Notes: generated by a model not told the origin, from the sequence alone. A DNA stretch of 64,000 nt from Naegleria gruberi (GCA_000004985.1 GG738866.1); one strand, 5' to 3'. Positions 5,119 through 43,058 are shown, counted from the first letter of the stretch. Translations and numbers: made by a program.

Positions 5119-5574
5119 GTTTTGTAGAAAAGGCTTACCAGTAGTGTATAAATGCCATTTCAAAGTGGCTTTGTTGGTGGAGAAAATTTGTGGGATTTGA
5201 ATATTTTTAAACAAGTTTGAAAATAAAATTGTGAGGAATGAAAAAGCCATCACATACCTTTCATTGATCCATATGTTCAGTTACAAAGCTTTTAGTTCTT
5301 TATTGGCTTCGTCTTTCATGATCACTGGAGCGGAAAGAAGAAAAGCGTTTCGTTTGAACATGTGCTTCGCTTCACATAGAACAAAGCAAACTTGGTACTA
5401 CCTAGGTATTGTTCTTGTGATGTCATATTGATGACATCGATTGATGGTGCGAAGATCGTTGTCGGCTGTTTTTTTTTTATTATTTAAAATAATTTGTTAA
5501 CGGTAATATTTTTAAAATTACCAAACTTAACACTAGAGGGTATATTAAACCTTTTATTTTACAATTAATGTGCT

Positions 5575-5645
5575 CGTCTCGTGGTGTAATGGTAGCATAG
5601 TGGACTTTGAATCCATTGACGGAGGTTCGATTCCTCCCGAGACGG
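5575..5645 (+). tRNA. tRNA-Gln, anticodon UUG, 71 nt, no intron.
   Basis: Cloverleaf read by hand. Acceptor CGTCTCG pairs with CGAGACG. D arm GTGT/AATGGTA/GCAT. Anticodon stem GTGGA/TCCAT with loop CTTTGAA, anticodon TTG. T arm GGAGG/TTCGATT/CCTCC. Discriminator G. Internal Pol III A box TGGTGTAATGG and a perfect B box GGTTCGATTCC. Close to canonical eukaryotic tRNA-Gln(UUG). Confidence 0.9.
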
Positions 5646-5666
5646 TAAACGTGGCGAGCCATGAAA

Positions 5667-12067: not shown

Positions 12068-15000
12068 TTATTTGCTCACATAAGAAATTATATCAGCATA
12101 AGACATGGTAACAGGCAAAGTCTTGTCTTCCGTCAATTTCTTCAAGAATGTTCTGTGGAAATCATTGAAAAGTACCTTCTTGAATTTTTCATTGTTTGAA
12201 GTTTCATTAATAGCATTGGCAATTCTGACTGGCATTTCTGACTTGAGTTGAACTCTGAAAAGTTCGCACAAATCAAAAACTTTGGTAAGGAGAGCATCAT
12301 CAGAGTATGGCACTTCGCTTGGTTCTTCTTGTAAAGAGAATTTGTTAAAGTTCAAATCATGAATCAAGTCAAAGAACTTTTCTCTATCACCATCCCATTG
12401 CTTCTTACCTAACCAAATGTAGATAGCAACACCATCACAGAGCAAGTAAACACCATCGTCTGGATTAATGAGCTTTCTGGAGAGAGGTTCTAATTTGAGA
12501 ACCTTTGGCTTATCATTTTCTTGTTCGGCCGATTCTTCAGCAAGTAATTGTGAAACATTAATCATGAGTGGGTGAACCATCAATGTAGATTGTTGAATAG
12601 AACATGATGAGAAGAATAAAGAAGCAGCACTTCTACCATCAGCTCTAACTTCCTTACCACCAATAAGCATGGCAGACTTTGAAAGTCCACAAATGAAAAG
12701 AGGTAAGTATTGAAGAGCTGTAGGCATGACAATTCCCATACTTCCAACATTGGCAACAGTCTTATATCCAGCAACAGCTCCCTTAAGCCACTTATCAATG
12801 AGAATGTTCTTGGAATTGGTAATACCTTCCTTTGGTAAATCTGCAGCCAAAATCTTACCCATCAAATTAGTTAAACAAGTAGTTTGAGTACTATTATAGA
12901 GAACAGACAATGAAGTAGTAATTGGAAGAAGAAGGTTACAAACACGAATCTTTCTTTGACCTTGATCAGAAGTGTACAATACAGCAACTTGAACGCTGAC
13001 ATTAGGAGTAGAAAGCATTGCACCAGTGTGAACCATTTGGAAACCAAAAGTTTGAGTACCAGAAATGTTTGGTAAAGCCATCAAGTCGTGACCTCTAATG
13101 AAGAAGTTACCAAAGAAGTTAACAATCTTCATACCACTGCTCACTCTAATTCTCATAACACTTTCAAATCCTGTAATTTCTTCAATGATATTTTGTTTCA
13201 AATCAGAAGCCAATTGATGAGATAATTGATCTGGATATTCGTACAATTTACACCAACCACCAGTAAATTTAGAAAGATTGGAAATGGTGGAAATGTCCAA
13301 GAAGGAGTTACGTGATTCTGGAATTGAATAACAATACAAGTCAATACAAATTTGATCCTTATTGAAGAGGAGAGCAAAATCTCTATAGCTTTGATCAGCT
13401 GGTTGGAGTAATTTGGCTTCAGCCTTTTCATTACCGTAATCGTTCAAATTTTCACGATTGGTGAGTTTGTTTGGTCCAATAGTTGGCAATTGAGAAAGGA
13501 AGATGGAAACCTTTCCTCCAAATCTACCGATCAATCTACCAGCAGCATTCAAAGCAGATCCCAAACAACATTCAGCATTGGTTGATCCCTTAAACATCAA
13601 TTCCAATTTGTCCAATAAAATTTCAACTAAATGATAGCTTTCTTCCAAGTTGACGAGCAAATCGTTAGGAAGTGGTAAGAGAGATTCATTCAATTCACCA
13701 ACAACTAATTGCTGAGGATTTGAGAGTGTTGGTCTCAAATTGAAAAAGTGAATCTTGGTATCAAAACAGAGAATTCCAACCATGGTTCTTGGTGATTTTT
13801 CTTTCAATTCCTTCAAACAATTCTTGATAGCCTTAACAGCACTTTGGAAAAGTCCTCCATTAATACTATGGAAACTGGTATCAATCAAGAATAAGTATGC
13901 TGGTGGTTGAGGTGGACGAGACATGTATTCTTGTGGTGCCAAATATTCATAAACACCATTGACAAGTTCAGGTCTCTCGAAAAAGTCTTGTCTAACACCA
14001 TTATTATCAGTTGGGCTATAGTATCTCTTTGGAACTTCATTGATATTCTTACAAACGTTACATTGCCACTTGTTTCCGTATTCGATAAATTGAACAAATG
14101 GATTGATATAAGTTCTACAATTGTTACAACGAACAATAAAGTTTCCTCCAATGGTTGGTACTTCCTTTTGATAGAATGGATTTAAAACACAACCAAATGG
14201 TAAGCCATATCTGTTCAAAAGTTCTAAACTTTGTGGAACAGCATTACAACTCATTTTCATTGTGTTTTCATCACTTTGCAGGAATTTAAAAACTTCACTT
14301 GCTGGTCTATTTTCAGTGGATCCATATTTTTCTCTGAAAAGATTATAATGTGCTTGATAGAGAGGAGCAACATCAGGTTGTCCAGAAACATGAGAGGTAA
14401 GTAACTCGGCAGCATCCTTTGGTTGAGGCATATTATTTGGAGGTACAATTTGAACAAAAGGTTGTTGGTTTTGTTGTTGATTTAAAGTTAGTGTTCCCAT
14501 GTGAGAAATAACATCTTGAACCATGAAATTATGTCCTTGTTCAAAGGCTGATTCAGATTGAACACTTGATCCTTGAAGAGCAGATCCTGAAATTCCAACA
14601 CTTGGAGGTGGAGGTTGAACAACACCTGTAGTTGGTGGTTGGTGATGAGATTGTCCTACTGCACCATGTACATTCTCTCCAAATTTAAGTTCTGTTGGTG
14701 GTGGACCAACTGGCTTTGATAAAGCAGAAGTAGTAGGATTGAAAAAGCTGTTTCCGGTTGGAGGAGGTGGAAGGCTTGATCCAAATGTATTTGTTGTTGT
14801 TGGAATGGTAGAACTCGGATCATAAAAACCACTACTTGTTCCTGTCGATGGTTGATAAGAAGATGAAGAAGAAACAGGATTATAAAAACCGTAGCCTGTT
14901 GTTGGAGTGGATGGAGAGGAAAATCCTCCAACACTAGAACCTCCCATCATCATACCACCTGAAGTAGTAGGTGTAGTTGTTGTTGTTGTATTGGTACCAT

Positions 15001-15082
15001 AATTTCCGTATGGATTTGAAGTAGTTGTCTGAGATGGTTGATTCGTAGAGGTAGCTTGGAGAGGATTATAAAAGTTGTTCAT
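12068..15082 (-). CDS. SEC24: COPII coat subunit Sec24, 1004 aa, with a Pro/Gly/Thr-rich N-terminal extension.
   Basis: Sec23/24 zinc finger CNNCRTYINPFVQF...WQCNVC, followed by trunk (vWA-like), beta-barrel, helical and gelsolin-like regions of the expected length. The N-terminal low-complexity PTTSGG / PPPP region is typical of Sec24 rather than Sec23. Convergent with the upstream gene, with only 34 bp between the two stop codons. Confidence 0.9.
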   Translation of the reverse strand: MNNFYNPLQATSTNQPSQTTTSNPYGNYGTNTTTTTTPTTSGGMMMGGSSVGGFSSPSTPTTGYGFYNPVSSSSSYQPSTGTSSGFYDPSSTIPTTTNTFGSSLPPPPTGNSFFNPTTSALSKPVGPPPTELKFGENVHGAVGQSHHQPPTTGVVQPPPPSVGISGSALQGSSVQSESAFEQGHNFMVQDVISHMGTLTLNQQQNQQPFVQIVPPNNMPQPKDAAELLTSHVSGQPDVAPLYQAHYNLFREKYGSTENRPASEVFKFLQSDENTMKMSCNAVPQSLELLNRYGLPFGCVLNPFYQKEVPTIGGNFIVRCNNCRTYINPFVQFIEYGNKWQCNVCKNINEVPKRYYSPTDNNGVRQDFFERPELVNGVYEYLAPQEYMSRPPQPPAYLFLIDTSFHSINGGLFQSAVKAIKNCLKELKEKSPRTMVGILCFDTKIHFFNLRPTLSNPQQLVVGELNESLLPLPNDLLVNLEESYHLVEILLDKLELMFKGSTNAECCLGSALNAAGRLIGRFGGKVSIFLSQLPTIGPNKLTNRENLNDYGNEKAEAKLLQPADQSYRDFALLFNKDQICIDLYCYSIPESRNSFLDISTISNLSKFTGGWCKLYEYPDQLSHQLASDLKQNIIEEITGFESVMRIRVSSGMKIVNFFGNFFIRGHDLMALPNISGTQTFGFQMVHTGAMLSTPNVSVQVAVLYTSDQGQRKIRVCNLLLPITTSLSVLYNSTQTTCLTNLMGKILAADLPKEGITNSKNILIDKWLKGAVAGYKTVANVGSMGIVMPTALQYLPLFICGLSKSAMLIGGKEVRADGRSAASLFFSSCSIQQSTLMVHPLMINVSQLLAEESAEQENDKPKVLKLEPLSRKLINPDDGVYLLCDGVAIYIWLGKKQWDGDREKFFDLIHDLNFNKFSLQEEPSEVPYSDDALLTKVFDLCELFRVQLKSEMPVRIANAINETSNNEKFKKVLFNDFHRTFLKKLTEDKTLPVTMSYADIISYVSK

Positions 15083-18453: not shown

Positions 18454-19225
18454 TTAATTGAATGGTTGAGGTGGATAACCATAAGGATTGAATGGTTGTG
18501 GTTGCATACCGTATGGTTGAGGTGGCATACCATATGGTTGAGGAGGAGGAACTCCCATACCCATATTCATATTCATTCCCATGCCCATATTCATTCCCAT
18601 TCCCATTCCCATACCTCCAAAACGATGTCTGTAAGATGGAATTGGTTGAATGTATGAAGCACCTCCAGCCATAATGAACAAGTAAGCTGCAAATGAATTA
18701 GTCACAAATTATTGAATAATTTCAAAACATACCATTAACAAATTCATCAATGGTCATGACTCCATTACCATCACGATCCTATTTCAAATTTCTAATAAAA
18801 TTGCAAAATAAAACTAAAACTTACCATCATTCTGAAAAGGAATTTAGCTTGATGTGGAGGAATACCACTATTTTAAATCAATCATATTAATATTACTATT
18901 TAAAAAATCATTATAAAACATACAAATGAGTAGCAGCAGCAAATTTGAATTCCTTCTTTGAAAGAGTTCCACTACGATTGAGATCGTATTGCCAGAAAAT
19001 TTGTTGAGCTGCTTGCATGTAATTCATACGATTGACCATGACATGAGGAGGCTAATTAGGGAGAAATTTGGGAATTTTTCATCATTATGAGAAAAATGTA
19101 AAAAAACAACTTACAACAACGAAACCTTGTGGCAACCAAGTTGGTTGACCCATTCCTTGCCAATAAGTGGTAACAGTAGTTGTGGTAGTAGAACCTGGTT
19201 GTTGATATGATCCGTAGCCGTACAT
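18454..19225 (-). CDS. Small EF-hand calcium-binding protein, two canonical EF-hand loops, with Tyr/Gly/Gln-rich N-terminus and Gly/Met/Pro-rich C-terminal tail. Five exons: join(19115..19225, 18924..19051, 18825..18867, 18733..18778, 18454..18686), 186 aa.
   Basis: Exon 1 is MYGYGSYQQPG...LPQGFVV with a GTAAGT donor. Exon 2 ...QQIFWQYDLNRSGTLSKKEFKFAAATH holds EF loop D-x-N-x-S-G-x-L-x-x-x-E. Exon 3 is GIPPHQAKFLFRMM. Exon 4 DRDGNGVMTIDEFVN is a canonical loop DxDxNGxxxxxE. Exon 5 is AYLFIMAGG...GMGMGMNMGMG...PPQPYGMPPQPYG. Introns are 63, 56, 46 and 46 bp, all GT..AG with phases consistent. Confidence 0.6.
18541..18625. repeat. Imperfect short tandem repeat (cccat / tcccat units) inside the coding exon, encoding (GM)n.
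   Basis: Visible periodicity cccatacccatattcatattcattcccatgcccatattcattcccattcccattcccat. It translates on the minus strand to MGMGMNMGMGMNMNMGMG. Confidence 0.6.
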
Positions 19226-19656: not shown

Positions 19657-22600
19657 TTAAGGATGAAGAGTATTGTCAATTGAAGTCAGTGTATACTCAC
19701 AAACATCTTCTTGGCCTGTTTTTGATCTGTCCTGTTTTGGGGTTTGATTTTGGAATTGATATAAATTTTGTTGTGATCCATTGTTGGAACCACCATACAT
19801 GGAATTAGATCTGGAGCGAGCTCTTTCAACTTCACCCAAATCAACTCTGAGTGGTGGATATTCTCTCTGTTGAATTTCTGGACATTTCACTTCAAATATT
19901 CTTGTTGATTCAGAAAGCCCTTTTAGTGGATAAACTCCCAAATCTCTAGCAGAGAACACTCTCTCAGCTTGAATTCTCTGTCTTTTCTTGGAGAAACTTG
20001 AACTGGACGAGAAGCTGGCACTATTGGTTTCATCAACATTTAAAAAGTTACTATAACCTGCTTCAACATTTGCTTCATCCAAGTATTGGACATCCTTATA
20101 AAGAGATCTGGTCTTGTAGAATAAATCCTCGCTCACACATACTTGACCACCATGGGCCAAGGCTTCAATACGGGCAGACTTGTTTACAACAGTACCAAAA
20201 TAATCATATCTCTTCATTGTCTTGTCAAAAACACAGTCACCCTTACCATAATGCAAACCAATTCTCACTCTCAAACCACTCCAATAGGCTTTTCTTGTCT
20301 TAGAGTCCCACTCTTGTCTACAATCCCATTCATGATATAGATCACTAGGCCATTTAGCTGAAAGCAATTCTAATTGAACAGCCATAGCCCACAACATGGC
20401 ATCATATGGATCTCTGAAAGCAACATAAAAACTGTCACCGTTCGTCTTTACTTCATACCCTCTATAGAGTTGGAGATTTCTTCTCATTATTTGATTGTGA
20501 ATTTCCAAAGATTCCCTCATAGCCTTCTCATTACCTTGCCACAACTTGGTACTATTCTGAACATCAGTGAATGCACAAGTGATAAAACCTGATTTAGGTG
20601 CATACTTTTCGCTTGAATCCTTTCTAAAACAGCATAAAAGCAGTGTCATTATAGAACATGCACAAATAATGCAAACGGCAGAACCAATAGAAATACCAAC
20701 AATTGCACCAGTTGAAAGTGTTCTTACTATTGGTTTCAATCCACATGTGTCTAGATCTAATTTATAGGTGGTATTCAAATTTGAAGAAGCATATTGCAAG
20801 TACAACATTTTAGAACCTTGATTACATCCACAAGTAGTCATATCCAAATCACAATTAGATGAGGAAATAGATCTTGCACTAATTGTTGTTGAAGAAGTGG
20901 TAGGACAGGTGTCCCCATAAGGTCCAAAATAATCTTCACCTAACTCAAAAACTGATCTCAAAAATAACGAAGAAGTAAATGTTGATCTAGTCATTTCAAT
21001 ATTTGCTTGTTGCATATAGCTTAAAATGTTCGATACCATTGTTGCAAGGGCATAGCCTTCATAGGCTTCCATAGTCTTATTCAAATTAGGGAAATATGCT
21101 GGATAATCAATCAGAAATTCTCTGGCCATTATATTTGTTGAGCCCGCTTTAGCAAATGAAATAAGGAAAGAAGTGGAAATAATATTGGAAGGGAATGTGA
21201 ATCCTTTGAATTCCACATCTGACATGACCTCAGATGGAATGAGAATAAGTGAAGATGATCCTGTATATCTGTTCAAAAAGTCCTTCACATCCACAGCACT
21301 GGCCATCACAATAACAACATCTCCCAAACTTTGTGTCCAATCAACAACACTTCTGGATCTAGAAAATTGCTTGTATGAAGGAGTTATATCTTCATTACTT
21401 GTCTTGAAGAAGTAAGTTACGTTAGCCACGGCTGATTTCCAATACTGATCAGTACTGTGAATGATTGTAACATCTGGTTCCGTAATGATGCTACTCGCAT
21501 ATCTTGTTGCTGAAACTACTTCTTCAACAATACTTGGTCTCAAATTCACTACATATCTTGAGTATGGATATCTCAACTCTGGATGTCCTGAAACAGATCC
21601 TATCATTGCTACTTGGTATGAGTTCAACACATCTCTAATAGCAGATACATTACCAGTAATTACAGAGCCCAAAATACCAAATACCTTATTCTTTTCAATA
21701 AGGGTTTTAGCCTTTGAAATAATATCTGTCTCATCAGTATAATACTCTGAATAAATGTGTACTTGTGTATCGATAGTACCTTTCTCATTCATTTTGGAGA
21801 AGAGTGATTGAATACCAGTTACCAGATCATTGTTGACATTCTTATATGAAGAGGGATAAAGTCCTCCAAATATGATTGGACTCTTGATACCAGTAGAAGC
21901 TATAATGCTGTCCTTCTGAGCTCCACATTTTTCCTTGTTGTACACAAAATTATCAACCAACTCAAAGGATGTGCCAGTGTATTGGTAAATAAAATGAGAT
22001 CTCATGCCTTGATTACAGGAACCAGACATAAATTTACCAAATGGAATTTGGTATTTCAAAAATTCCTTACTGGAATATAATGTTTCATAGATGGATTTAC
22101 CATTGATAGTTGAAGTAAGAGGAATATTATCTAACACTTCAATAATAAAACTTCCAACAAGGAAACCTTCGACTGCTCCCAAAGTGGTTGGATTTGTTTC
22201 ATAGTATTTAGCCATTATTGAAGAATAAGAATCTATGAGAGTATGTTTCACGCTGAGATAAGGGAATGATTGTGAAATGTAGAATTTAACACTAGACATA
22301 GAAGGATTAGAAAGAAGATTGGATAGTTCTGCCTCCCATGAAATCTGCCTAAAGAAGAGACAAAAGACATGAATCTCATTTCTCAGACCAACAGATTTGA
22401 TACCTTCCAATACTGATTGTAAATATTTGAAACTAGTAACATCTTCAGGAATGGAAATGATAACTACTTGAGGATTTGCATCTTGGGAAAGTGAGTTGGT
22501 AATCAAAGATGAATTAACAGTTTGATCCATAGAAAATAGATAGCTACTGTCAATAGCTAGTCCATATGCTGAAATGATGGAAGAGAATTCTGAAAAGATG

Positions 22601-24647
22601 TTCTGACCATCCTTGCAGTTAGATCCCACAAACGAAAATCTGGACAATCCCAAAGTATTCATTCCAAAACTCATAATTGCTAGTATTCTTTCTCTAACAG
22701 TTAGTGTAACGAGAGCAACATTATTATAGAAGGTTGATCTCAATGCTGGTGAATCGTAGCCAGTTAGAGGTGAAATCATGACAATACTAGGGAAATTCGA
22801 GGAAAATTCCCCAATAAAATCCTTCATTACAGACTCGGCAGCTTTGCTTCCTACTAAGCCGACAATATCATGATCTACCACAAAGTTCCTTGTTGCTGAA
22901 ATCAAAGTTGAGGAGTTGTAGCTTTCCGAGACTGACAATACTTCAATTCTTCTTCCTCTGACTCCTTTCTGTAAATCATTTCTGTCATTAAAAGCAGCCA
23001 ACAATCCCATTAAAAAGTCATTGTCGTAAACACTTCCATCAGATGTATGCCCAAAAATGATTGGAAGCGAAATCTTTGTTGGATCAAAAAAGCAAGTAAA
23101 AGTGGAGGATCCAGGTAAATCCCAAGTCATTGGCTCACCAATTTCCGAGAATGAATTGTCTGTGTTTTGAATGGTTTTCCACACAGCCCTCATACCTTGG
23201 TTACATGAGCAAGAGGACATGTATGCATCATCTAATGTTATTAGACTTCTCTTATTGAGCTTGATACTTGGTGCAAGAGAAGCTGTCAAACTGTGTAGCA
23301 CAAGAGGATTAGAAATTTGCTCCTCGAAAAAGAAATATCGTCTTCTGCTCTGAACAGTTGTGCATTTAGTATAAGGACCTACTACTTGATTGTCCATAAT
23401 GTAGGTAGAGGATGAATAAATTAAGTTGATAAAATTGTCTCTGGTCAAGTCGCCTGAAACTCTCTGGGTGAGTACACTGATTGCAAGTTTACCAGCCATG
23501 TATCCTTCCAATTCTACAATGGATGGTACGTAGGATGGATTCAGAGCTTTCATGGCTCTTTGATAAGACAACACAATTGGATATTTGGTATTTGTTGGAG
23601 CTGGATATACTTGGGTAATTACAATGCTTGATCGATAGGGTAATGGATTTGATCCAATGAATGATCCTGTCATGAAAATGATATTCGAATCAAAGTCAGT
23701 CCTATTCTTTACAGCCTCAATAAAAGCAACTGTTGGCTTGTAGGTTGACATGCAAATGATTGCTTGTGGTTTTCCCTTGACAATATCCTCTACTGCCTGG
23801 GCAACATTAATGGTATTTCTCTCGTATTTACCCTATTAAGGTGAGATAGTAGCAACATTACTCAGTTGTGTTGTAATTTTGAGAATTATAATAATAACAT
23901 ACCATTGAGGTCAAATTCATTCCCAGTGGTTTAAGCGCAAGGGTTGATCCATCCACTCCTGACAGACCAAATGCATCGTTTTGATAAAAGATGGAGATTC
24001 TTCTCACCATTTTGACATTTACCAAATACTCAACCATTGCGGCGCACTCGTCCTGATAACTGGCTCTCACATTAATAATATTTGGTACGAAAGGATGTCT
24101 CATAAAAAGACCACCTGTTAAGGCTCCAACAAATGGCATTTTAGATGCAGTAATAAGGTCAAGAATTGCCTGACTGGTACCAGTTCCCATAAACCCAATA
24201 AATCCAAATATTGTATGGTTGCTAAGAAGAGTGAGTGTATTGTTGACACATCGAGCTGGCTCATAGCCATCATCAACAGAGTACAGGCGAAGTTTCTTAC
24301 CTCCCCACACACCTCCTAATTCGTTGATTTCCTTAAATGCAGCTTGAATGCCAACCATGAGCGGATAGCCCAGTCTGTTTTTCAACAGTGATGAATCATA
24401 CATAATGTTAAATTCATTGCAAATAACAAAAATACAGTATTATTCACACCTCATCTTTAACATTTAAAACTTACTCTCTGGTCTGTCCAGTAAGGGCAGT
24501 TGATTGCCCGAACCAAATATCGGTCTCATCATTCCATTTTTTGTCGTACTCTGTCTGGTCAAAGGTAAAAGATGTGTTAACAGTATTTCTATTCATCAAT
24601 ACAATAAGCAGCACGATTAATATTAATATTTTCAAAATATTCTTCAT
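19657..24647 (-). CDS. Receptor-type adenylate cyclase: signal peptide, tandem periplasmic-binding-protein type-1 (ANF-receptor-like) ectodomains, one TM helix, class III cyclase catalytic domain, no kinase-homology domain. Three exons: join(24475..24647, 23903..24374, 19657..23832), about 1606 aa.
   Basis: Exon 1 is MKNILKILILIVLLIVLMNRNTVNT (signal peptide) and ends ...GQTR at a GTAAGT donor. A 100 bp intron ends in AG. Exon 2 is LGYPLMVGIQAAFKEINELGG...VRASYQDECAAMVEY (PBP1 fold) and ends ...NLTSM at GTATGT. A 70 bp intron follows. Exon 3 is a 4176 nt single exon. TM segment AIVGISIGSAVCIICACSIMTLLLCCF. Cyclase motifs: FTDVQNSTKLW, KTNGDSFYVAF, RVRIGLHYG, FGTVVNKSARIEALAHGGQVCVS. The substrate-specifying positions are Lys (KTNGDSF) and Asp (YDYFG), which predict ATP rather than GTP. 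Confidence 0.85.
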
Positions 24648-25012
24648 TTTAGTTGTACTGCTCTTACTATATATCGGCGTAAGGTGCCCTATATTACTAG
24701 AACTACTATTATATTTACAATTTGATGAATTCATCCTAGAGTTTTTAAATTTCCTCCTTAATGCAATTTGTTATTAAAGTTTCTTAGTAGAGCAAGAACC
24801 AAACGCTCCACAATTTTTCGGTATTGCTGTTGTTTTTTTCGCTTGTTCAAAGTTGCTTCTTCTTTGAGACCAGCCTTTCCCTCGATTGAACTACGCGCTT
24901 GTGGGGGCTGTAATTTGAGGCGTTTGTTACGTTGTTTTTTGTACGTTCCTTAATAGCGGCAAGTATTTTTGTCTTTGGTTAAATTATCACTGTTTTAGAA
25001 AGAAAGAATCTC

Positions 25013-27529: not shown

Positions 27530-28723
27530 TCAACAACAATTTCTGTGAACAATTGATGGACCAACATCGTCATAATCTTGTTTTGAAATGTAATTCTGTT
27601 GGGTTTCAGAGGATGCCATTATTGAACCACCAATCCAACTGAGGTAATGTCTTTCTGGTGGGGCAGTAACCTTGATACTCATGGAAACAGGGGCTAAACT
27701 ACATAATTCCCTTTGCAATCTTTCTCCAATACCTTCAAACATGGTATTTCCACCACTAAGCACAATGTTGTTGAATAGATCTGGTCTCAATTCAAGGTTA
27801 CACTTTCCAATTGATTTAAATATCATTTCATGAATTCCACCCTCATCCAATCCTATTGATTCTGGATGAAACAATACTTCTGGACATCTGAATCTTTCAC
27901 TTTCAATCGTGATCATGTTTCCATCTGGTAATTCATATTGTTTCGATTTAAATTGTTCAAGTTCCTTATCAAAATCCAAAGCCACGTAACAAAATTTCTT
28001 AATTTCTGCAGACAACCACCTCTCATTCACATTTACCTTCTTTCCATTACGCTCCAAAAAGCAACGTCCACTTCTTGTCTCAGCCCCATAGCATGGCTCT
28101 TCAAAATACCTCGTCAATTTAAATTTACCCTGTTCGTTTAGAATCTGATATAACCAATCAGACAAATCCTCTCCACCCAATTCCAATCTAGAAACTGCAT
28201 GTTTAATAGCACGTCCCTCATGAATTGGAACTGATTGAGTAATTCCACCCCCACTCTCCAACACCACACCAGTTAGACAATCACAAGCTACCATCGACAA
28301 AGCTGCCTGATTTGCCAAACACAACAATGGTACCATAAAAGATTCAAACATGATCTGTGTTGTCTTTTCACGACTTGCCTCATCACTCAACACACTCTCT
28401 GTCACTAATACACCTAGATCCTCAGGATCAGTTCTCAATTCATTGTAAAATATGTGATACCACACCTTCTCCATGCCTTCCCAATCCACAACAGTGCCAC
28501 GTTCGATGGGAAACTTGGCCCACGTTGTACCAATCTTGCAAAATACTTCATCTCCAACTCTCCCAAATTTATCCTTATAACCGAACATGATTGAATTACT
28601 ACTAATCTTGTGATATTCGACAACGGAAGGGAATATGGCGATAGGTGTTTCATCTCCTGCAAAACCTACATTGCACATTGATGATCCACAGTCAATCACT
28701 ACGTTTTGAATAAGTGAAGACAT
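27530..28723 (-). CDS. Actin-related protein (Arp family, divergent actin-fold ATPase), 397 aa.
   Basis: VVIDCGSSMCNVGFAGDETPIAIFPSVV corresponds to actin [28 protein letters not shown]. The C-terminus KQDYDDVGPSIVHRNCC corresponds to actin KQEYDESGPSIVHRKCF. Insertions relative to actin are typical of Arps. The subfamily (Arp1 versus other) is not resolvable by eye. Confidence 0.8.
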   Translation of the reverse strand: MSSLIQNVVIDCGSSMCNVGFAGDETPIAIFPSVVEYHKISSNSIMFGYKDKFGRVGDEVFCKIGTTWAKFPIERGTVVDWEGMEKVWYHIFYNELRTDPEDLGVLVTESVLSDEASREKTTQIMFESFMVPLLCLANQAALSMVACDCLTGVVLESGGGITQSVPIHEGRAIKHAVSRLELGGEDLSDWLYQILNEQGKFKLTRYFEEPCYGAETRSGRCFLERNGKKVNVNERWLSAEIKKFCYVALDFDKELEQFKSKQYELPDGNMITIESERFRCPEVLFHPESIGLDEGGIHEMIFKSIGKCNLELRPDLFNNIVLSGGNTMFEGIGERLQRELCSLAPVSMSIKVTAPPERHYLSWIGGSIMASSETQQNYISKQDYDDVGPSIVHRNCC

Positions 28724-35826: not shown

Positions 35827-37662
35827 TTATCTACGAGTACAAATGAGTTGACCTCTTGGATGTAAACCTTCTTCTTCCAAAGTCTTGTTAATATTAGCTG
35901 ATGTGAGGGAGTATGTTTTTGGTGGAACACCTGGGCAATTGAATGAGAAAGTAGAATCCTTAACCAATGTGGCAATGTGAGCATGGACAGCCTTAATGGT
36001 ATCAGTTGGTTTGAATTTGGCAGTTATGGTTGTACCATCCAAAAGACGAACTCTGATGGCACTTTCTTGTGGTTGGGCAGGAGTTTGAGTGGTAGTTGGA
36101 GTGCTAGTGGCTGAGGATGAACCTTCAGAGCTAGTTGGAGTGGTGTCACGAGCGAGGAAGGCCTTCAAACCCATTCTTTGCAAATCAGTGAGATCCTTTT
36201 CGGCTTGACGAAGTTCTTCAGCCTTACCTTCTTGTCTGAATCTGTCCATCTTTCTTCTAATTTTATCTTCTTCGAGCAATTGTTTCATTCTGAGTTTTTC
36301 CTTCTTTTCGTCTTGCTTTTCCTTCTTGAATAATTCCAAATCTCTCTTCTTTTGATCTTCCTTGAGCTTTTCCATAGTTTCCATGGCCAATTTACCTTGT
36401 TCTCTACGTTTTAATTCTCTTTCCCTTTGTGATTTCTTTTCCTCTTCTTCCATCTTTCTCTTATTTTCCATTCTCTTTTGTTTGAGAAGTTCCTTCATTT
36501 CTTCAGCACGTTTCTTCTTATCTTCTTCAGTTTCAACAGTGAATTGAATCATTTCATCAATATCAGGATCTTCTTGATGTTCAAGCAACCATTCAATACA
36601 TCCTTCCTTTGAAGGTGGTTGTGGTGAATTCAAGAGAGCCTTCATTGATCTCAATTTAGAAAATTCCATTTCCATAAGTTCCTTAAGAATGTTAGCATCA
36701 ACAACTTTTTCAATTTCAGCCATAACTTGTTCATCAGAAACAGTTGTATCTACAGCTTTGGTTTCAGAGCTTGATGATTCTGTGGTGGTTGATGATGGTG
36801 TAGTTGTGGAGGATGAAGAATCAGTCTTTTTAGCATCAGTAGATGGCTTTGTTGTGGCCTTCTTTAACTTGTTTTGCAACAAGGACAATTCAATAGCCTT
36901 ACGAGTTTCGTCATCCAATTCATCAATTTCATCTTCCATAGCATCAACCTTTCTTACTGGTCTATGTTCATCAGCCCATGGATTTTTATAGACTTGACCT
37001 GCCAATCCTGATGAAGTTGTTGTATCAGAACTACTACTACTACTGGTTGCTCCCAAACTTCTACCACCTCCTTGGAAGGCTTGGAATGAATCTCCATATT
37101 CGTTAATCAATTTTTCTACTTTTTGAATATCAGCTCCGACTACAGATGTGAGCTTTGTATTATTCTTATAAAAGACAAATGTTGGCATTGCTCTAACTTC
37201 TTCCTTTGAGGAAATTGCATTATGTTTATCAACATCAACTTTGAGGAAGACAACGTTTGAATATTTAGAGGCAAGTGCTTCATAATGTGGTTTAATCATT
37301 TGACATGGTCTATATTATTATCATCATTAAATCATATGAATGATTTTGTATATTATTATTATTTCAATCAATGAAAATACAAGATATACATTGTGATCAC
37401 AAAATTAAATCATCGTCATTACATAACCAATTATAATTATCATCATCCGAATATTATTATTATTAAACCAATGATTAATATAAATTATTAATTAGTTAAT
37501 ATATTAATGATCACACAACAATCTCTACCCGATCAAAATCCAACATCACACAACTTACCCACACCATTCAGCATAAAAATCAGCAACCACCAACTTTCCA
37601 GTGCTATTACGGAGGTAACCTCTGAATTCCTCTTCAGAATTAATGTGTTTAACCTTGGACAT
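35827..37662 (-). CDS. Thioredoxin-domain plus UBX-domain protein, two exons: join(37559..37662, 35827..37309), with S/T-rich linkers, a UIM-like [19 protein letters not shown] segment and a K/E-rich coiled-coil.
   Basis: Exon 1, read by hand, is [35 protein letters not shown] with a GTAAGT donor. A 249 bp intron (37310..37558) ends in AG. Exon 2 begins [12 protein letters not shown]..., so the thioredoxin active site WCGPC is reconstituted across the splice junction. The C-terminus [27 protein letters not shown]...[14 protein letters not shown]...[13 protein letters not shown] is a UBX/ubiquitin-like fold. Confidence 0.8.
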
Positions 37663-41982: not shown

Positions 41983-42032
41983 NNNNNNNNNNNNNNNNNN
42001 NNNNNNNNNNNNNNNNNNNNNNNNNNNNNNNN
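41983..42032. other. Assembly gap: 50 N, conventional unknown-size scaffold gap.
   Basis: Run of exactly 50 N. Confidence 0.95.
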
Positions 42033-42249: not shown

Positions 42250-42705
42250 GTTTTGTAGAAAAGGCTTACCAGTAGTGTATAAATGCCATTTCAAAGTGGC
42301 TTTGTTGGTGGAGAAAATTTGTGGGATTTGAATATTTTTAAACAAGTTTGAAAATAAAATTGTGAGGAATGAAAAAGCCATCACATACCTTTCATTGATC
42401 CATATGTTCAGTTACAAAGCTTTTAGTTCTTTATTGGCTTCGTCTTTCATGATCACTGGAGCGGAAAGAAGAAAAGCGTTTCGTTTGAACATGTGCTTCG
42501 CTTCACATAGAACAAAGCAAACTTGGTACTACCTAGGTATTGTTCTTGTGATGTCATATTGATGACATCGATTGATGGTGCGAAGATCGTTGTCGGCTGT
42601 TTTTTTTTTATTATTTAAAATAATTTGTTAACGGTAATATTTTTAAAATTACCAAACTTAACACTAGAGGGTATATTAAACCTTTTATTTTACAATTAAT
42701 GTGCT

Positions 42706-42776
42706 CGTCTCGTGGTGTAATGGTAGCATAGTGGACTTTGAATCCATTGACGGAGGTTCGATTCCTCCCGAGACGG
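42706..42776 (+). tRNA. tRNA-Gln(UUG), second copy.
   Basis: Identical to 5575..5645 at offset 37131. Confidence 0.85.
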
Positions 42777-43058
42777 TAAACGTGGCGAGCCATGAAATTT
42801 TTATTTTCAAATTGTTCAAATTGATGCATCACTTGTATGTTAATTTTGATGATACTCCAGTTCACTCCATCAATTCCACACAAAATTTCTCCATTAAGCT
42901 GAAATACCGTACTCAACGGTCCAAAATGAACACTTTTACAAAAACTGAAACAGCCCATTCAATGATTCACTTTGCACAATTTGCTATCCACGCAAACGCT
43001 CCCAACACCAAGATTTCAAAGATTTCGCAGCAAACCAAAATCCAAATAAAAAAAATAA

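Follow-up and report, generated by a model that had tools for sequence, protein, structure and literature searches.

The window analysed here is a stretch of 64,000 nucleotides of Naegleria gruberi DNA (GCA_000004985.1 GG738866.1), and positions 19657 to 24647 on its minus strand are occupied by a gene of three exons. The best explanation of this gene as a whole, and a highly probable one, is that it encodes a type-I membrane receptor adenylate cyclase (AC) with three Venus-flytrap modules, of which the outermost (M1) is the probable sensor. The order of the parts is a signal peptide, three type-I periplasmic binding protein (PBP) or Venus-flytrap modules of about 395 amino acids each (M1 to M3), one transmembrane helix, a linker of 14 residues and a class III cyclase domain. 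The features of the gene are listed below.

19657..24647, minus strand: whole gene, ATG to stop, 3 exons, coding sequence of 4821 nucleotides, 1606 amino acids
24582..24647, minus strand: predicted signal peptide (MKNILKILILIVLLIVLMNRNT), with Kyte-Doolittle windows above 2 at residues 1-23
24375..24474, minus strand: intron 1, 100 nucleotides, GTAAGT...CAG, phase 2, with the frame restored across it
23833..23902, minus strand: intron 2, 70 nucleotides, GTATGT...TAG, phase 0
23074..24527, minus strand: module M1, residues 41-468, spliced across both introns; PF13458 E 1e-36, PF01094 E 3e-9
23194..23211, minus strand: motif copy 1, C-S-C-N-Q-G, residues 423-428, at the end of M1
21889..23073, minus strand: module M2, residues 469-863, a divergent PBP; PF13458 E 7e-9
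22006..22023, minus strand: motif copy 2, G-S-C-N-Q-G, residues 819-824, at the end of M2
20713..21888, minus strand: module M3, residues 864-1255, the membrane-proximal PBP; PF13458 E 1e-8, PF25493 E 2.6e-5
20815..20832, minus strand: motif copy 3, C-G-C-N-Q-G, residues 1216-1221, at the end of M3
20626..20712, minus strand: transmembrane helix, residues about 1256-1284, the sole internal hydrophobic window above 1.6
20584..20625, minus strand: juxtamembrane linker RKDSSEKYAPKSGF, 14 residues, with a (Y/N)APK motif
19843..20592, minus strand: class III cyclase homology domain, residues about 1296-1545; PF00211 E 5e-24
19948..20082, minus strand: low-complexity insert in the cyclase domain, residues 1466-1510, about 45 amino acids, before the last strands

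Judged from its sequence, the gene is intact and lies where an earlier note on this DNA had placed it. The exons run on the minus strand from 24647 to 24475, from 24374 to 23903 and from 23832 to 19657, the last being 4176 nucleotides long, and the joined coding sequence begins with the ATG at 24647, contains no internal stop and ends with a single terminal stop at 19657-19659. Calling of open reading frames (ORFs) gave a long minus-strand ORF at 19657-23751, preceded by two shorter in-frame ORFs. Exon 1 ends with ...ACCAGAGA/GTAAGT and intron 1 with ...AAAACAG/, and exon 2 ends with ...TCAATG/GTATGT and intron 2 with ...TTAATAG/. The junction across intron 1 (TGQTRE/LGYPL) aligns without gaps to the homologs P0003, P0004 and P0005, and the junction across intron 2 (LTSM/GKYERNT) aligns without gaps to the paralogs P0001 and P0002. 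Because the frame is kept and the homologs align without gaps at both junctions, and with splice sites that agree, the earlier note was right in describing two short 5' introns followed by a single 4.2 kb exon.

The ectodomain is a tandem, internal triplication of a type-I PBP or Venus-flytrap module. Peripla_BP_6 (PF13458) scored above threshold in all three modules (about residues 46-370 in M1, about 474-834 in M2, and from about 877 in M3), and blastp showed that M1 is homologous to M2 (E 1e-10) and to M3 (E 2e-18). The AlphaFold2 (AF2) model of M2 and M3 together had the PBP fold, with a predicted local distance difference test (pLDDT) of 78 and a predicted TM-score (pTM) of 0.69, and in Foldseek it matched LivJ, AmiC, the urea-binding protein UrtA and 4KV7 over their whole chains at target TM-scores (TMt) of 0.70-0.75, as well as the flytraps of GABA-B and taste receptors. 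Taken together, the three Pfam matches, the similarity between modules and the fold lead to three modules and not two. The count of two PBP-type ectodomains that had been given before is ruled out by the third significant PF13458 module, whereas the suggestion, made at the same time, that the ectodomain is internally triplicated agrees with the mutual similarity of M1, M2 and M3 and with the spacing of a repeated motif (396 and 397 amino acids). Both Pfam families that had been expected were found, ANF_receptor (PF01094) in M1 and PF00211 in the cytosolic part. In the hydrophobicity analysis there were two segments only, at residues 1 to about 23 and about 1256 to 1284.

The three modules differ in their conservation. 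When M1 was compared with solved structures in the PDB, the best match was 4KV7, a 'probable Leu/Ile/Val-binding protein' (E 3e-44), followed by 3LOP (E 2e-25), and the identity of M1 to HAAT-type solute-binding proteins of bacteria is about 35%. Identity to the paralog P0001 is 67% in M1 and 68% in the transmembrane helix and cyclase, compared to 39% in M2 and M3, and the same gradient was observed against P0002, P0058 and Acrasis P0079. Judged by identity between paralogs, the rate of change in M2 and M3 is about twice that in M1.

In the cytosolic part, which consists of 323 amino acids, the PF00211 match begins 11 residues in and scored 85 bits against a cut-off of 21.9; it was the only match in a Pfam scan at E<=1, which returned no kinase family and no other domain. 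The transmembrane helix is separated from the cyclase by the 14 residues of RKDSSEKYAPKSGF, and there is therefore no room for a kinase-homology domain between them. The earlier proposals that the cyclase follows the helix directly and that such a domain is absent are thus both upheld. In class III cyclases, a Lys and an Asp select ATP and a Glu and a Cys select GTP, two Asp residues bind metal, and an Asn and an Arg stabilise the transition state. These roles of the catalytic residues were reportedly worked out by Tesmer et al. in 1997 and by Linder in 2006. The strings KTNGDSF and YDYFG are both present in the protein, and in an alignment of 48 cyclase domains the catalytic set D1305, K1344, D1348, D1425, N1432 and R1436 was complete in one chain. 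This D-K-D-D-N-R set is identical to that of GRESAG4.3 and to that of all 15 of the heterolobosean-clade sequences in the tree described below. As had been proposed, the residues for substrate specificity are Lys and Asp, since K1344 and D1425 occupy the same alignment columns as their counterparts in T. brucei GRESAG4.1 and GRESAG4.3, and they are not Glu and Cys. The enzyme is predicted from these residues to be an adenylate cyclase that works as a homodimer.

The comparison with solved structures gave the same relatives. In a phmmer search of the PDB the best matches of the cyclase were T. brucei GRESAG4.3 (1FX4, E 2e-28) and GRESAG4.1 (1FX2, E 5e-27), followed by mycobacterial Ma1120 (E 1e-8) and the soluble guanylate cyclase (GC) beta subunit (E 1.7e-4), and no metazoan membrane GC or AC was found in this search at E<=0.001. 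The AF2 model of the cyclase domain (pLDDT 82, pTM 0.81) also had 1FX4 and 1FX2 as its first Foldseek matches (E 1e-18, TMt 0.78-0.80), with Ma1120 at 1e-13 and GC domains near 1e-10 (soluble GC at about 4e-10). In sequence as well as in fold, the best matches are thus the T. brucei receptor ACs, and the cyclase domain is unlike those of metazoan membrane GCs. In terms of loop length, the segment between alpha3 and beta4 has 25 residues here, 41 in T. brucei and T. cruzi, and 7 in the bacterial outgroup, and the 25-residue form is common to cyclases of diplonemids and to PH-domain-linked and PP2C-linked cyclases. From the 25 against 41 residues the domain is assigned to the Cyr1/trypanosomal eukaryotic subtype without the full Delta-subdomain. 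A (P/A)(P/A)LR(V/L)D element at the end of the domain is the sole part that aligns toward the C-terminal region of about 110 amino acids that is specific to trypanosomal ACs.

The motif that repeats in the ectodomain is CNQG, which starts at residues 425, 821 and 1218, one copy at the end of each module. Only 0.003 copies are expected from the composition, and more than one copy was obtained in none of 20000 shuffles. The earlier note had described a thrice-repeated C-x-C-N-Q-G in the strings SCSCNQGMRAVW, SGSCNQGMRSHF and TCGCNQGSKMLY. All three strings are found in the protein and each contains CNQG, but the strict form C-x-C-N-Q-G occurs in two of the three, the middle copy being G-S-C-N-Q-G. 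In a MAFFT alignment the three copies align with each other, together with a conserved downstream Cys (TCFFDP, KCGAQ, TCGLK), and in the model of M2 and M3 the motif is directly followed by strands, such that it precedes the last beta-hairpin. This element, in the form C-(N/T/S)-(Q/L)-G with R or K after it, also ends the modules of N. gruberi P0001 and P0058, Willaertia P0040, Acrasis P0079, P0086 and P0088, as well as those of P0003 and P0004, in which two PBP modules are linked to a class-C seven-transmembrane domain. In the membrane-proximal module, as compared among 12 heterolobosean members of the family, C-x-C-N-Q and the 'TCG' before the transmembrane helix are almost invariant.

In the bacterial protein P0005, which has a PBP linked to a Ser/Thr kinase, the sequence SNHQGSHRVW is aligned to the motif. 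By this alignment, the motif is the eukaryotic, Cys-bearing form of the N-[HQ]-Q-G end-of-domain signature of Peripla_BP_6, and its cysteines are a eukaryotic and extracellular addition. Because the motif aligns with the bacterial sequence and recurs at module ends, it is taken to mark the ends of modules and not a new function; a novel functional element was considered and is ruled out by the presence of this signature in the bacterial PBP. Modules that have a Cys after 'GPY' have C-x-C, and those that lack it, which include every M2, have the single C, while the downstream Cys is present in all modules compared. Since the Cys pattern covaries between modules in this way, each full motif probably takes part in two disulfides. 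For the second Cys of the motif, the probable partner is the conserved Cys that lies 30-40 residues further downstream (TCF, KCG, TCG). For the first it is the Cys that follows GPY, and in M2 both members of this latter pair are absent together. In residue numbers, the predicted pairs are C425-C462, C821-C851 and C1218-C1245, and, for the first Cys, C372-C423 and C1191 (or C1209)-C1216.

A first search for full-length homologs, in which 8000 word-sharing candidates were scored, gave 5 matches. The closest of the full-length matches was the N. gruberi paralog P0001, which is 50% identical and is itself truncated at the N-terminus, and no protein with high identity over the ectodomain was found in a database of 5.8 billion sequences. 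The family was recovered mainly by a query with the cytosolic or cyclase part against 1.8 billion representative proteins, which gave 657 matches at E<=1e-30. Among the best 150 of these 657, PBP-linked cyclases with one to three modules were found in N. gruberi, N. lovaniensis, Willaertia magna, Acrasis kona and metagenome contigs. They include the N. gruberi protein XP_002673284 (1647 amino acids, three modules) and an Acrasis kona protein annotated as 'adenylate cyclase'. A neighbour-joining tree (BLOSUM62 distances, 100 bootstraps) was built from the 48 cyclase domains. The PBP-linked heterolobosean cyclases formed a clade at 100% bootstrap, within which the cyclase of this gene, P0001 and N. 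lovaniensis P0020 formed a subclade, also at 100%.

By summed score, the first places went to proteins of diplonemids and Fabomonas that contain four or five cyclase domains. By phmmer, P0016-P0018, P0021 and P0024, from diplonemids (Diplonema, Namystynia, Hemistasia, Sulcionema) and Fabomonas, have 3-5 cyclase domains per chain, and in the three diplonemid proteins with five domains the second domain lacks the catalytic residues (e.g. RLDTPA in place of DKDDNR). Two further relatives, P0003 and P0004, carry two tandem PBP modules of the same subfamily, with C-(N/T)-Q-G ends and the downstream Cys, in front of a class-C (7tm_3) G-protein-coupled receptor (GPCR) domain. This is a tandem-flytrap GPCR layout with the same sensor cassette as the cyclases, and it differs from them in its output, which is the 7tm_3 domain and not a transmembrane helix with a cyclase. 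P0005 is gammaproteobacterial; its Ser/Thr kinase is fused after a transmembrane region to a PBP that is 34% identical to M1, which makes it a bacterial receptor kinase with the sensor subfamily of M1.

Among known systems, the closest in layout are the trypanosomatid receptor ACs (T. brucei ESAG4/GRESAG4, T. cruzi TcAC, Leishmania RAC). The gene had been likened to kinetoplastid receptor ACs of the ESAG4/GRESAG4 type, and for the architecture this likeness holds, with a signal peptide, tandem PBP modules, one transmembrane helix and a class III cyclase, which is the layout described for the trypanosomatid proteins (PMC6027212, PMC10470820). Both are type-I proteins with tandem flytraps, a single transmembrane helix, no kinase-homology domain, a short linker with NAPK, and a class III cyclase with D-K-D-D-N-R that needs to form a homodimer. 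The differences are that the trypanosomatid ACs have one or two flytraps and the Naegleria protein has three; that the Naegleria modules score best on the generic Peripla_BP_6 family, with M1 near bacterial solute-binding proteins; and that the Naegleria cyclase has an insert of about 45 low-complexity residues and lacks the full Delta-subdomain (36 residues, in the alpha3-beta4 loop).

The other systems share single parts of the design. Bacterial HAAT solute-binding proteins (LivJ/LivK, AmiC, UrtA; 4KV7, 3LOP) are of the same fold and sequence family as all three modules, and the bacterial Peripla_BP_6 domain shares the N-[HQ]-Q-G end motif. However, each of the bacterial proteins is a single domain, soluble or with a lipid anchor, that works for an ABC transporter or a regulator, whereas in Naegleria the module is present three times, has gained cysteines and is followed in the same chain by a transmembrane helix and a cyclase. 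Cyr1-like cyclases (fungal PP2C-cyclase, PH-domain and diplonemid multi-cyclase proteins) share FTD(V/I)xxST, YEVKTxGD(S/A)F, the C-terminal PPLR and an alpha3-beta4 insertion of about 24-29 residues that starts with WP, but these proteins are cytosolic or multi-domain and lack a PBP ectodomain. We take this Cyr1-like catalytic subtype to be the 'class IIId' of the Linder-Schultz nomenclature. Metazoan receptor GCs of the NPR-A/GC-A type have a flytrap (ANF_receptor) ectodomain, a single transmembrane helix and a dimeric class III cyclase, and they have in common with the Naegleria protein the logic of an extracellular flytrap that controls an intracellular dimeric cyclase. They have one flytrap, a kinase-homology domain and a coiled coil between the transmembrane helix and the cyclase, and the residues Glu and Cys, none of which was found in the Naegleria protein.

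A mechanism can be proposed in which two chains form a homodimer with two symmetric active sites at the interface, as in T. brucei GRESAG4. With the full D-K-D-D-N-R set in each chain, we infer that the enzyme must act as a homodimer. In trypanosomal ACs, which have two flytrap domains, activation depends on dimerisation (PMC6027212, PMC4561360). In the Naegleria protein, the state of the ectodomain would set the proximity and orientation of the two transmembrane/cyclase units, and a change in it would be relayed by the single transmembrane helix and the 14-residue linker and would shift the catalytic domains relative to each other. Since neither a HAMP domain nor a coiled coil or kinase-homology domain intervenes, the spacing and orientation of these units is most likely the regulated step. 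M1 is the likeliest of the flytraps to bind a ligand, which would be a small solute resembling an amino acid or an organic acid, a proposal made because M1 is conserved like the catalytic domain and is close to bacterial solute-binding proteins. M2 and M3 are probably spacer, dimerisation or transmission modules.

Several points weigh against this explanation of the gene, and they are given here together with the alternatives on which they bear. The signal peptide was called from hydrophobicity alone. Translation from a further in-frame ATG, at 24734, would place 29 more residues (MNSSNCKYNSSSSNIGHLTPIYSKSSTTK, 24648-24734) before the hydrophobic N-terminus, which makes the start codon ambiguous (24734 or 24647), and a start at 24734 could possibly turn the signal peptide into a signal anchor. 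In terms of the motif, AF2 confidence is low there (pLDDT below 50 at model residues 352-354 and 722-751), so that the basis of the disulfide scheme is sequence covariation.

The origin of the architecture can be read in two ways. Heterolobosea may have joined Peripla_BP_6 modules of bacterial type with a eukaryotic Cyr1-like cyclase independently, in which case the likeness to trypanosomatid ACs is convergent; this is a serious possibility, although it falls somewhat short of an even chance. Alternatively, the three-flytrap cyclases of Heterolobosea and the two-flytrap cyclases of trypanosomatids descend from one receptor AC of a Discoba ancestor, which is also possible but can be put forward only tentatively. 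The cyclase tree leans toward convergence, since the heterolobosean clade joins the diplonemid, PH-domain and PP2C-linked cyclases, with the trypanosomatid ACs outside, and the alpha3-beta4 segment of 25 against 41 residues points the same way; against it, the best solved matches in sequence and fold are the T. brucei enzymes. The support for the grouping in the tree is 53%, and so weak a value neither shows nor excludes a specific sister relation to the trypanosomatid ACs.

The ectodomain also supplies evidence on both sides. PF13458 outscores the adenylate-cyclase PBP-like family PF25493, that of the trypanosomatid ACs, in all three modules, which speaks for convergence. PF25495, also a PBP-like family specific to ACs, reached only 14 bits. 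However, PF25493 does match the protein (42.7 bits against a cut-off of 27.2, spread over three sub-threshold stretches of 15-24 bits) and matches Acrasis P0079 with 66.9 bits, and it gave no match on the bacterial P0005 despite a much stronger PBP_6 score there, which argues against convergence. P0001 carries PF25493 as a precomputed match, and since the membership of this family may include heterolobosean sequences, the argument from Pfam is partly circular. The ectodomain comparison with trypanosomatids was limited to receptor-AC fragments of about 90 amino acids from T. conorhini, in which the ectodomain ends YYGPFVDDTAC...ECGVNYGATLLSVW, in the same register as YFGPYGDTC...TCGCNQGSKMLYLQ of M3. 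The similarity is not significant (BLASTP E 0.083, hhalign E 0.2), and this favours convergence; against it stand the shared register of the motifs (GPF..C...C-G-x-N-Y-G and GPY..C...C-G-C-N-Q-G) and the juxtamembrane NAPK in both lineages. Trypanosome receptor ACs have NAPKEPTDP at the place of the (Y/N)APK of the Naegleria linker, and (N/Y)APK lies 8-11 residues before the FTD strand in both. That Heterolobosea and trypanosomatids both belong to Discoba likewise speaks for the common ancestor.

The main functional rival is a sensor of stress, osmotic change or pH with the same architecture, in which the flytraps no longer bind a solute and a perturbation of the membrane or of the ectodomain drives dimerisation, as is reported for trypanosomal ACs. 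No ligand is known for the trypanosomal receptor ACs, which acid, osmotic (hypotonic) or proteolytic stress can activate (PMC6027212), ligand gating of the Naegleria cyclase is an assumption, and the strong divergence of M2 and M3 (39% between paralogs, with weak Pfam scores) would also fit such a sensor. This mode is nevertheless rather unlikely, because M1 is constrained like the catalytic domain and is similar to bacterial solute-binding proteins at E 3e-44, which is hard to explain without binding.

It is very improbable that the gene is a pseudogene or an artefact of the gene model, of which only a cyclase fragment of 151 amino acids would be real. The idea arises from the public N. gruberi annotation, which consists of this fragment only, less than a tenth of the gene: P0006, 'predicted protein, partial [Naegleria gruberi]', is 100% identical to residues 1300-1450 (window positions about 20128-20580). 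Against it, the coding sequence runs for 4.8 kb without a stop or frameshift and has canonical splice sites, every domain is conserved in full-length paralogs and orthologs from four heterolobosean genera, and the catalytic residues are intact. A guanylate or dual-specificity cyclase of the metazoan receptor-GC type, toward which one could be led by PF00211 spanning both activities and by the PF01094 match of M1, is the least probable reading and, together with any receptor containing a kinase-homology domain, is contradicted by K1344 and D1425 in place of Glu and Cys, by the 14-residue linker with no kinase family at E<=1, and by the PDB ranking (soluble GC beta at 1.7e-4 against 2e-28 in sequence, soluble GC at about 4e-10 against 1e-18 in fold).

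The surroundings fit an ordinary eukaryotic chromosome arm with a GC content of about 35%. The genes in the window include a protein kinase, Sec24, actin, a Myb protein, a UBX-thioredoxin protein and two tRNA-Gln genes, and in its 43,058 real bases neither another cyclase gene nor a group of related receptors was found. The neighbouring genes are of ordinary eukaryotic kinds, with housekeeping or signalling roles, and lie at the following positions.

23-1417: transmembrane-linked protein kinase
12068-15082: Sec24
27530-28723: actin
35827-37299: thioredoxin-UBA-UBX protein

The two tRNA-Gln(TTG) genes are on the plus strand at 5574-5646 and 42705-42777, 37 kb apart. An assembly gap of 50 N is located at 41983-42032, and from 43059 to 64000 the window consists of N only, which suggests the end of the scaffold or padding. 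Just downstream of the cyclase gene, on the minus strand at 18454-18705, is an ORF of 83 amino acids with low-complexity (GM)n/(NM)n and PPQPYGM repeats, and an exon of a neighbouring gene may include it.

Naegleria is known for a very large repertoire of cyclases. In the literature, no description was found of PBP-linked or receptor-type cyclases in Naegleria, Acrasis or other Heterolobosea. The gene is not a new kind of system, given that paralogs with the same Pfam matches are already public as 'predicted protein', and its design varies a known one. Because a receptor of 1606 amino acids is annotated as a fragment of 151, the counts of 'membrane-bound cyclases' and of sensor domains in Naegleria are likely underestimates. 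To our knowledge, no ligand of the trypanosomatid receptor ACs has become known after about 30 years. Receptor-type ACs have been called a hallmark of trypanosomatids (PMC6027212), and the family in Naegleria, Willaertia and Acrasis presents the same design, with an extra flytrap, in free-living relatives of these parasites. Since the outermost module M1 is close to characterised bacterial binding proteins, ligand screening is realistic. If the common origin in Discoba is true, this hallmark of trypanosomatids would be older than parasitism, and Naegleria would offer a free-living, culturable system for finding the ligand of an orphan class of receptors.

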